DNA from: Promethearchaeota archaeon
GTDB taxonomy: Archaea; Asgardarchaeota; Lokiarchaeia; Sigyniarchaeales; SOKP01
DNA length: 64,000 bases
Assembly (NCBI GenBank): GCA_016839705.1
Contig: JAEOTR010000016.1
Span: 73,556-137,555 of the forward strand
Direction: 5' to 3'
The notes under the pieces are model-generated. The model searched no databases. It was not told where the DNA came from and saw only the letters and a program-made list of their open reading frames with translations. Position 1 is the stretch's first letter; every line of letters starts with the position of its first letter. Both the position numbers and the translations under genes were made by a program. Of this stretch, positions 52,600 to 64,000 are shown piece after piece.

Positions 52600-52731
52600 C
52601 GCAACGGGAGGGATCTATTCCCATAAGAAGAAGTTTCTTATAGATCGAACCCCCGCGTGCATTCACACACTGGCTTTCTGGAAAAATTTTCTACTCCAAG
52701 CCAGCGCCGTACCGGGCTAGGCAACCGTTGC
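52600..52731 (-). tRNA. tRNA-Ser(GGA) with two introns (52676-52693 at 37/38; 52615-52644 at 58/59)
   Basis: Acceptor GCAACGG/CCGTTGC, G73, anticodon stem CTGGC/GCCAG, long variable arm; BHB helices TTGG/CCAG and GTTC/GAAT. Confidence 0.92.
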
Positions 52732-61208: not shown

Positions 61209-61384
61209 GGGCCATTTGCTTAGCCTGGTTAACAAGGTTTTATATGCTTGGTCAACAAGCGCAGGTCTTATAAATGATCTTTGGACATACAATAAACCAA
61301 TTGTCCGAAAAAGTAAAAACCTGAGAGAAAAAGGGATTATCCCTTTTAGCGAGGAAATCCGGGGTTCAAATCCCCGATGGCCCA
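61209..61384 (+). tRNA. tRNA-Ile(UAU) with three introns (61232-61256, 61274-61318, 61326-61356)
   Basis: The 75-nt mature form GGGCCAT-TT-GCTT AGCCTGGTTA AAGC-G-CAGGT CTTATAA ACCTG-AGATC-CGGGG TTCAAAT CCCCG-ATGGCCC-A folds as a clean class I cloverleaf; each intron has a BHB-like motif. Confidence 0.85.
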
Positions 61385-61408
61385 TTTTTTATTAATTTTA
61401 AATAGATT

Positions 61409-62276: not shown

Positions 62277-63644
62277 TTATTTTTGAGTAATTTGCTTATA
62301 AGCTTTTTCAAATCTCTCAACAGCAGAGATAATATCTTTTGTTTCTGAGCCTATGGCGGCATTCATAACTATATACGGGGTTGTATAATTTTCACAGCAA
62401 GTGCCAAATGATTTTTCCTTGGGATTGTAAACCCGAGGACCTGTTACACGTAAATTGTATAATGCTCCACCCAGAGCATATAGTTGTTCTGCTTTTAGGG
62501 TTTCTAAAGATAAAGCTACTGCTACAGGATTATATACTTCTAGCAATCTCTCATTAATTTTTTTAGCTACTTCTGATAATTTTTCCTCTAAAATTTTTCG
62601 ATTTTGTTGTTGTTCCTCAATCAATTTTTGATATCCACTAATTCCTAAGGAAAGCATAGAGATCAAGAAATTAACTACTGGTGTAGCGGAAGCTCGTCCA
62701 GCATATGCTTGGCTGATTTTATCTATGCTTTCATTATTAGGAGATGCAATCAAAGCACCCCCAATGGGAGTAAGAAAGTTTTTGTCAGTTGATTGAATAA
62801 TTGCATCAACTCTCCCGGCGTCTATTGCCGCTCGTATTAATTTCATCCATTCCGGGCTTTGAACTCCATAGGCATTAATAATAATATGAATAAGACCTTT
62901 ATCTTGAGCTAATCTGCTGATTTCTTTGAGATTATCATGTTCACGTGGGGGGAAAAAACTAGTTAATGATATAATAGCAAAACAATCATCGTCTAGGCTA
63001 GATTCTATGTCTTCAATTGGGATTCTAACAGCATCCCCCTGAATCCTACCTTTCACAATTTTAGTTTTTAATCCCATTAGATTTATTGCTTTTAAAAGTG
63101 CATTATGGTCGATTTGTGGAATTAAAACAGTTCTCTTATTTTCTTCTTTGGCATCATCGGTTCTTTGCCTTAATGCACCTAATGTTAAGGATAAAGACAT
63201 ACCTGTGCAAAGTGGTGTTATAATAGCTTTTTTTACATTCGGTAAACCAAAATTTCTTAAAATATCACGAGCCAAATAATTTGAGATTTCATACATAATT
63301 GATCCACCAGGCGCTTTGGGTTGTGGTGCTGTTAAAAATCCACTTCGTCCTACTCCATGGCAAAATCCTGCTGATGTTTTCAAATGCAGTTTTGAAGCGA
63401 TTCTTGCCTCTCGTTCTCCAACTCTTGCCGCATTGTTATCTTTATCAGTATCCATATTTGAAAGGGTTAGGAGTAGAAATTCAATTTGTTCATCACTCCA
63501 CGGTTCTTTTGGTACACTCTTTTGCTCAAATAAGGTCCTTATTGGTTTTACAAAATTATTAATAACAATCTGCCCTCTTTCAAGCATATTTTGAGGGATA
63601 GTAGAATTTTTAAAAAACTCGCTTATTTTATTAAAATCAACCAC
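62277..63644 (-). CDS. spcS: O-phosphoseryl-tRNA(Sec) selenium transferase (SepSecS)
   Basis: VGEREARI, HGVGRSG.L.APQPKAPG, TGMSL, NAYG, QSTDKNF (PLP lysine), YAGRAS; adjacent to tRNA-Sec. Confidence 0.95.
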   Translation of the reverse strand: MVDFNKISEFFKNSTIPQNMLERGQIVINNFVKPIRTLFEQKSVPKEPWSDEQIEFLLLTLSNMDTDKDNNAARVGEREARIASKLHLKTSAGFCHGVGRSGFLTAPQPKAPGGSIMYEISNYLARDILRNFGLPNVKKAIITPLCTGMSLSLTLGALRQRTDDAKEENKRTVLIPQIDHNALLKAINLMGLKTKIVKGRIQGDAVRIPIEDIESSLDDDCFAIISLTSFFPPREHDNLKEISRLAQDKGLIHIIINAYGVQSPEWMKLIRAAIDAGRVDAIIQSTDKNFLTPIGGALIASPNNESIDKISQAYAGRASATPVVNFLISMLSLGISGYQKLIEEQQQNRKILEEKLSEVAKKINERLLEVYNPVAVALSLETLKAEQLYALGGALYNLRVTGPRVYNPKEKSFGTCCENYTTPYIVMNAAIGSETKDIISAVERFEKAYKQITQK

Positions 63645-63873: not shown

Positions 63874-63999
63874 TGGCGGCCCTCGAGGGGAATCGAACCC
63901 CTATCCCTCCGCAGGATAACTGGGTTTGAAGCCCAGTGTCGGAGACCACTTATTGTTAGAGATCTAATCGATCTAATCAAATTCCAACCGTCAAGGGCC
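63874..63999 (-). tRNA. selC: tRNA-Sec(UCA), 9/4 fold, with a 33-nt intron (63950-63982) in the D-stem
   Basis: 9-bp acceptor GGCCCTTGA/TCGAGGGCC, 4-bp T-stem, 7-bp D-stem GTTGGAG/CTCCGAC after splicing, 6-bp anticodon stem with TCA, long variable arm, G73, encoded CCA. Confidence 0.93.
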
Positions 64000-64000
64000 A

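Follow-up and report, generated by a model that had tools for sequence, protein, structure and literature searches.

A three-intron tRNA-Ile(UAU) gene from a Lokiarchaeia genome and the conserved element of its anticodon intron

BHB-type multi-intron tRNA genes and TiaS-less tRNA-Ile(UAU) are both known from archaea. Asgard tRNA genes interrupted by multiple introns, as many as five in one gene, have been published (PMC11291895; bioRxiv 10.64898/2026.10.13.758758) in papers that centre on Atabeyarchaeia, Freyarchaeia and Jordarchaeia, and in which a text search found Ile and UAU to be absent. Those genes and the multi-intron genes of Thermoproteales (PMC4090602) resemble the gene described here in their short non-canonical BHB introns, in gain and loss among relatives, and in their escape from standard annotation. 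TiaS-less tRNA-Ile(UAU) is known from Nanoarchaeum equitans, Ca. Korarchaeum cryptofilum and ARMAN-2, ARMAN-4 and ARMAN-5 (PMC3239211, PMC6000648), cases described as rare species-level gains. Shared with the gene described here are the UAU anticodon, the absence of TiaS (stated for ARMAN) and an anticodon intron (reported in the ARMAN-2 and Korarchaeum genes); for ARMAN, tRNA-Ile2(CAU) is stated to be missing as well. These papers describe no mechanism of AUG discrimination. A U34 tRNA-Ile engineered in archaeal form and carrying cnm5U misreads AUG, and unmodified UAU is functional in Mycoplasma mobile and in a B. subtilis mutant (PMC3895270).

Eukaryotes and other archaeal tRNAs offer further comparisons. 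In yeast pre-tRNA-Ile(UAU), which has the same decoding problem and an anticodon-adjacent intron, Pus1 makes pseudouridine 34 and 36, with the intron promoting the former and keeping ncm5U34 from forming (PMC11408192). Cyanidioschyzon merolae has a three-intron tRNA-Ile(UAU) in which an intron is likewise kept beside the anticodon (PMC9602550). The euryarchaeal tRNA-Trp intron also directs modification of its own anticodon arm, but the modification is 2'-O-methylation, and the intron carries C/D boxes and acts in trans (PMC11408192). Cbf5 modifies U55 unguided on an acceptor-plus-T half-tRNA, anchored through its PUA domain, and prefers ACA over CCA (PMC2018633), and the H/ACA RNP modifies both U residues of an unpaired UVUN when ACA is present (PMC7075261).

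The gene described here lies in a window of 64,000 nucleotides, the whole stretch of DNA that was analysed. Its informative part is the UAU anticodon together with a conserved element in the middle intron, rather than the triple intron. Unlike the known TiaS-less cases, it belongs to a set found throughout one Asgard class, in several further Asgard families and in the greater part of a DPANN sample. What sets it apart from published multi-intron tRNAs is an anticodon intron that bears the conserved element and, across most of one family, appears to have shifted to 38/39.

The gene, its introns and their borders

The gene occupies 61209-61384 on the + strand, does not encode CCA, and is followed by a run of T residues (61385-61390) that may serve as a terminator. 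Neither ARAGORN nor Rfam gave a match to the unspliced gene. Removal of introns of 25, 45 and 31 nt, together 101 of the 176 nt, yields a 75-nt product that ARAGORN called tRNA-Ile(tat), with 21/21 stem pairs forming a complete cloverleaf. Exon 1 (61209-61231, positions 1-21) was placed with orthologs and ARAGORN; exon 2 (61257-61273, positions 22-38), the 7-nt exon 3 (61319-61325, positions 39-45) and exon 4 (61357-61384, positions 46-73) follow from the ARAGORN call on the spliced form, all on the + strand. The anticodon TAT (U34 A35 U36) lies at 61269-61271, as placed by ARAGORN and folding. The preliminary description had the intron total, coordinates and sizes exactly right and was correct on three BHB introns and their positions; it missed the UAU anticodon, and as a whole is partly supported.

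Orthologs were collected through an adjoining 226-aa gene and by pattern search, giving 78 distinct sequences in the family. Intron 1 (61232-61256, at 21/22, 25 nt) has an HBh' motif in which the central helix TGGT/GTCA pairs 4/4 and h' (CAAG/CTTG) has 4 bp; an exact intron-free junction was present in 10 of the 78 orthologs. Intron 3 (61326-61356, at 45/46, 31 nt) is a relaxed BHB with 3/4 central pairs and the one mismatch previously noted, G43.G; its exact intron-free junction was seen in 54/78, and placement at 46/47 leads to an identical product. Because these junctions are exact, introns 1 and 3 are not chance. Intron 2 (61274-61318, 45 nt) has the helix TTAT/GTAA 4/4 in the 38/39 register only, with weak outer helices in this gene, and an anticodon-loop intron was present in every ortholog found. 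In 77 of the 78 orthologs the 38/39 helix pairs 4/4, as against 1/4 for the 37/38 helix, also in 77; the base after A37 is invariably A (A38), and the last intron base is A, C or T. Since the intron is at canonical 37/38 in other families and in one genus of the same family, intron 2 appears to have moved by one base, from 37/38 to 38/39, in most of this family. The per-junction BHB check, strict or relaxed, thus gave 4/4, 4/4 and 3/4 central pairs, and the gene belongs to the archaeal BHB multi-intron tRNA class. DNA contigs from four runs each covered part of the gene, and none spanned it whole.

Other readings of the locus were ruled out. The canonical 37/38 register for intron 2 gives only a 1/4 helix. 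Registers yielding a TAA (Leu) anticodon, and intron 3 taken as a long variable arm, have no helix and are contradicted by orthologs without the insert. A Ser(GGA) split from an automatic BHB-weighted parser, with a broken anticodon stem, was excluded by ARAGORN and orthologs, and because the parser mis-split this gene its genome-wide intron counts are approximate. One catalytic EndA subunit is encoded (C56:35964-36446), and Pfam models found no beta subunit in this genome. Asgard EndA is described as an (alpha-beta)2 enzyme; here the beta subunit may have diverged too far for recognition or be missing from the assembly.

Three introns alone are ordinary in this Lokiarchaeia (Promethearchaeota) group. 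The orthologs carry 1-5 introns each, and about 32 of the 43 tRNA genes found in this genome (31% GC, 93% complete) bear introns by the approximate parser counts. The earlier statement that triple introns are known mainly from Thermoproteales is outdated, given the published Asgard genes and the 52/78 orthologs with three or more. An obligatory splicing order, suggested from the shared 7-nt exon, is unsupported. Of the 7-nt exon, motif 2 includes A39 alone and motif 3 the remaining positions, 40-45, which keeps the central helices apart. Other tRNA genes of this genome have a 44/45 or 45/46 intron on its own, so such motifs are cut without help. Intron 3 itself has been gained and lost among orthologs. 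Folding gave the motif-3 helix a probability of 0.4-0.7 with intron 2 present and about 0 after its removal, which suggests a weak preference for splicing intron 3 before intron 2; the same model scores the remaining BHB helices near zero, and BHB motifs are poorly handled by folding models.

Several other tRNA genes were noted in the same genome. Outside the window, tRNA-Phe(GAA) (C73:49994-50192, +) has four predicted introns (19/20, 30/31, 51/52, 59/60). Within it, tRNA-Ser(GGA) (about 52600-52731, -), overlooked by default ARAGORN, has two strict BHB introns (37/38, 18 nt; 58/59, 30 nt), and tRNA-Sec(UCA) (about 63874-64000, -) has an apparent D-arm insertion and reaches the contig end, adjoining a 455-aa gene (62277-63644) that is putatively SepSecS-like by inspection. 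Contig C16 ends in the same tRNA-Sec sequence, which probably reflects an overlap between the two contigs. An ARAGORN 'tRNA-SeC' at C18:39386-39471 resembles protein-coding sequence and is a false positive. Genome-wide, tRNA introns are mostly 25-33 nt, many exactly 29-31 nt, with unrelated sequences. Duplicate isodecoders with different bodies were found for Ser-CGA (three; C48:1729, C81:106524, C93:1708), Arg-GCG (two; C67:494, C92:68245) and Glu-CTC (two; C48:2092, C49:6099), and the 6.8% contamination may be their source.

Decoding of AUA without TiaS

TiaS was found in 0 of 161 genomes of the class and in 0 of its 40 high-quality genomes, and tblastn with six full-length TiaS queries gave no match in this genome. 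It was present in 184 of 239 other Asgard genomes and missing from five further families (f9, f19, f26, f27 and f28), all of which have tRNA-Ile(UAU) genes; in the TiaS-less families the Rfam tRNA search overlooked multi-intron genes. No tRNA-Ile(UAU) gene was found in 50 TiaS-positive genomes, where the CAU genes are often intronless.

The codon ATA is used at 33.5 per 1000 codons in this genome. Aligned ATA columns contain 42% I and 2% M, which rules out reassignment of AUA to Met; ATG columns contain 32% M. The CAT tRNAs found are eMet and iMet only, in a MAG from which further tRNAs are missing too. The spliced tRNA carries C4-G69, U12-A23 and A73, which we take to be Ile identity elements. 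The gene in the window is predicted to be the cell's AUA reader and belongs to the TiaS-independent tRNA-Ile(UAU) class. In the literature on Asgard archaea and UAU, TiaS or agmatidine, no paper was found that reports this decoding strategy for the group.

A conserved element in the anticodon intron

With search patterns that permitted intronless genes, an anticodon-loop intron was present in every tRNA-Ile(UAU) gene recovered, both in Asgard archaea (about 105 genes) and in a sample of the Nanoarchaeota phylum (DPANN; about 130 genes). Introns 1 and 3 are mobile passengers, and the anticodon intron is always kept (>230 genes).

The start of this intron, G-R-Y-Y, can pair with C32, position 31, G30 and G29 in 78, 78, 78 and 74 of the 78 orthologs, the register being set by rule. 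This upper helix is retained where the BHB h' pairing has been lost (35/35 and 40/40). In the window gene, folding and orthologs point to an alternative hairpin (61263-61280, +) in which 61263-61267 (positions 28-32) would pair with intron bases 61276-61280, leaving U33-U34-A35-U36-A37-A38-A-U as the loop. Next comes a 7-bp stem within intron 2 (61281-61287 with 61302-61308, +; mean pair probability 0.95-0.99), which could stack under the hairpin. The precursor would thus have 5 + 7 = 12 bp, one base, and then a conserved ACA (61289-61291, +) immediately 3' of the stem's 5' strand. Folding of the full precursor gave a probability of 0.87 to the alternative helix versus 0.01 to the BHB helix, in models that treat BHB motifs poorly.

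In Lokiarchaeia, the intron's own stem supplies the lower helix; in Odinarchaeia, three other Asgard families and DPANN, this helix involves positions 20-26. For the latter form, 101 unselected hits averaged 4.82 of 7 pairs, compared with 3.10 ± 0.11 in shuffled sequences and 2.8-3.5 in slid registers. Two-sided base changes were seen at pair 21:+12; the alignment behind that analysis (A1) was hand-picked, so the 101 unselected hits are the fair test of the lower helix. A shuffle test on the 14 nt preceding ACA in single Lokiarchaeia genes was non-significant.

ACA is present in 76 of the 78 family orthologs, 15-17 nt past U36 and 13-15 nt from the top pair, and its first A is retained in 77; it is fixed while the flanking loop is randomised. 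The window gene is at the long end of this range, with ACA 17 nt from U36 and 19 nt from U34. Among canonical-intron Asgard tRNA-Ile(UAU) genes, 18 of 23 have ACA exactly at intron +15, as against 0 of 24 other canonical tRNA introns, and 5 of the 23 are without it. Six Asgard genes were first found with an ACA-requiring pattern, and four of these were recovered again without that requirement. The sequences are related, so the ACA and helix counts overstate independence. ACA-bearing genes gave >120 GTDB genome matches, mostly DPANN. A count by eye over the roughly 130 genes of the unbiased DPANN sample gave about 46 with ACA at +15 and about 25 with UCA, GCA or CCA, the rest (about 45%) having no NCA; the conserved letters there are CA, unlike the ANA of the H/ACA box. 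The motif thus extends across DPANN, patchily, and we found no paper describing the ACA element in this tRNA intron.

The ACA lies directly 3' of a stem, as in box H/ACA RNA. The bipartite pocket of such RNAs, with its upper stem and its K-turn or K-loop, is absent, and only a 3'-pocket-like strand is present; no K-turn or second pocket strand was seen in intron 2, and column conservation revealed no C and D boxes there. The element is thus no box H/ACA guide, though it may function in a similar way.

Two further observations concern similar sequences. The introns of iMet (37/38; C76:9715-9839) and eMet (32/33; C37:25127-25244) contain a stem and then ATACA at +21 and +18, respectively, a spacing that differs from that of Ile. 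Many records of DPANN-type tRNA-Ile(UAU) are titled 'uncultured Methanosarcinales archaeon' (L315-L387), and these titles are probably mislabels.

Putative modification of U34 before splicing

The Cbf5 and H/ACA literature, the hairpin geometry, the encoded enzymes, the misreading caused by cnm5U and the yeast precedent led us to infer that Cbf5 pseudouridylates U34 in cis before splicing, a proposal to which we give an even chance. Before splicing, the 5' end of the intron would pair with positions 28/29-32 and stack on the lower helix, so that U34 would come second in a loop that caps about 12 bp, with ACA following. The resulting geometry would resemble that of U55 over the T-arm, acceptor and CCA. 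Cbf5, with Nop10 and Gar1, would hold ACA through its PUA domain and make pseudouridine 34, and perhaps 36 too, which would block Elp3-type C5 modification and the misreading of AUG. The RNA would then refold to the BHB form and be cut by EndA.

Cbf5, Nop10, Gar1 and Elp3 are encoded in this genome. U34-A35-U36-A37 matches the UVUN pattern, and U34 is 17-19 nt ahead of ACA, compared with 17-18 nt from U55 to NCCA. Against a Cbf5 reading, the loop is without the T-loop C56. The folded precursor would be like archaeal H/ACA sRNP substrates and guide-independent Cbf5 action at U55 (PMC7075261, PMC2018633) in its 10-12 bp helix, its ACA and a putative target U about 15 nt away; unlike in the sRNP, guide and target would be one molecule, ACA is internal, and there is neither K-turn nor 5' pocket strand. 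Yeast Pus1 needs the anticodon paired with the intron, whereas the proposed archaeal route would use a looped anticodon, an ACA tag and Cbf5. Among small DPANN genomes, Cbf5 was found in at least 78 of 80; it is present with or without ACA (40 + 40 genomes), so its presence does not discriminate.

An intron-dependent anticodon modification made by another enzyme is unlikely, though the likeliest of the alternatives. A TruA/Pus1-like synthase would recognise the helix of anticodon and intron as in yeast, and a PUA/THUMP methyltransferase would take NCA for the 3' end of a tRNA; TruD is a further candidate. The universal part is an intron with an N-G-R-C start rather than ACA, the NCA variants resemble the CCA end, yeast Pus1 provides a precedent (PMC11408192), and a TruA-family gene is present in this genome and in Odinarchaeum. 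TruA was not found, though, in two ACA-positive DPANN genomes, which are incomplete MAGs, and Asgard genes keep the first A of ACA (77/78), the letter Cbf5 prefers. Pus10, absent from 80 of 80 DPANN genomes, was rejected as the reader of ACA. Many DPANN genes without ACA would also suit a hairpin that is a folding switch only, delaying splicing or shielding U34 from Elp3. U34 would then stay unmodified and features of the ribosome or IleRS would separate AUA from AUG, as in Mycoplasma mobile; the alternative helix does exclude the BHB helix in folding (0.87 vs 0.01), and unmodified UAU works in that species and in the B. subtilis mutant (PMC3895270). Yet shielding would be over once the intron is spliced, while Elp3 is encoded, and an unpaired ACA at fixed distance would be left unexplained, making this account improbable in our judgement.

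Guidance in trans, by the excised intron or a separate small RNA, has parallels in the tRNA-Trp intron C/D RNA (PMC11408192) and in H/ACA sRNAs that target pre-tRNA-Tyr (PMC2651775), and the intron is complementary to tRNA positions 20-32. We regard it as very unlikely: the intron has no C/D boxes, K-turn or second pocket strand, a search of this genome for separate C/D or H/ACA antisense guides gave chance-level matches only, and the complementarity in Lokiarchaeia, at 4-5 bp, is too short for trans pairing. Least probable of all is that the three introns are neutral passengers, the motif having been conserved through inheritance or transfer of a single tRNA gene and through the constraints of the BHB. 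The abundance of intron-bearing tRNA genes in this genome fits such a history, as do G+2 and R+3, which in some lineages can contribute to the h' helix as well, and the loss of ACA in several lineages. Introns 1 and 3 come and go, however, and the anticodon intron is never lost in >230 genes; ACA is fixed amid a randomised loop, and the spacing is the same in DPANN and Asgard despite two lower-helix architectures.

Cis pseudouridylation by Cbf5 may apply more widely. That TiaS-less archaea (Lokiarchaeia, Odinarchaeia, other Asgard families and many DPANN) share one answer to AUA decoding, a self-presenting pre-tRNA-Ile(UAU) whose intron refolds the anticodon into a mimic of the T-arm or an H/ACA substrate for Cbf5 to modify in cis before splicing, has, in our estimate, a chance slightly short of even. 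If true, these archaea would have their own counterpart, and possibly the forerunner, of the pseudouridine-A-pseudouridine anticodon that eukaryotes form in an intron-dependent way. Such a system would also explain why the anticodon intron cannot be lost, assign a role to a tRNA intron and show the H/ACA enzyme acting in cis. Direct ancestry of the eukaryotic system calls for caution, since TiaS is kept in most of the other Asgard families sampled. For the question of AUG avoidance, the conserved intron element names a candidate mechanism, one that could be tested in vitro with purified proteins as well as in a pair of cultured Asgard species bearing the element.

Two observations on cbf5 genes were made in the DPANN sample. 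In a single case (G407:C34:16605-17723, -), cbf5 precedes a same-strand tRNA-Ile(UAU) gene by about 120 nt. In three genomes (G440:C17, G504:C9, G505:C1), an in-frame insertion, probably an intein, adds about 500 aa within Cbf5 and splits it, giving open frames of 820-891 aa.
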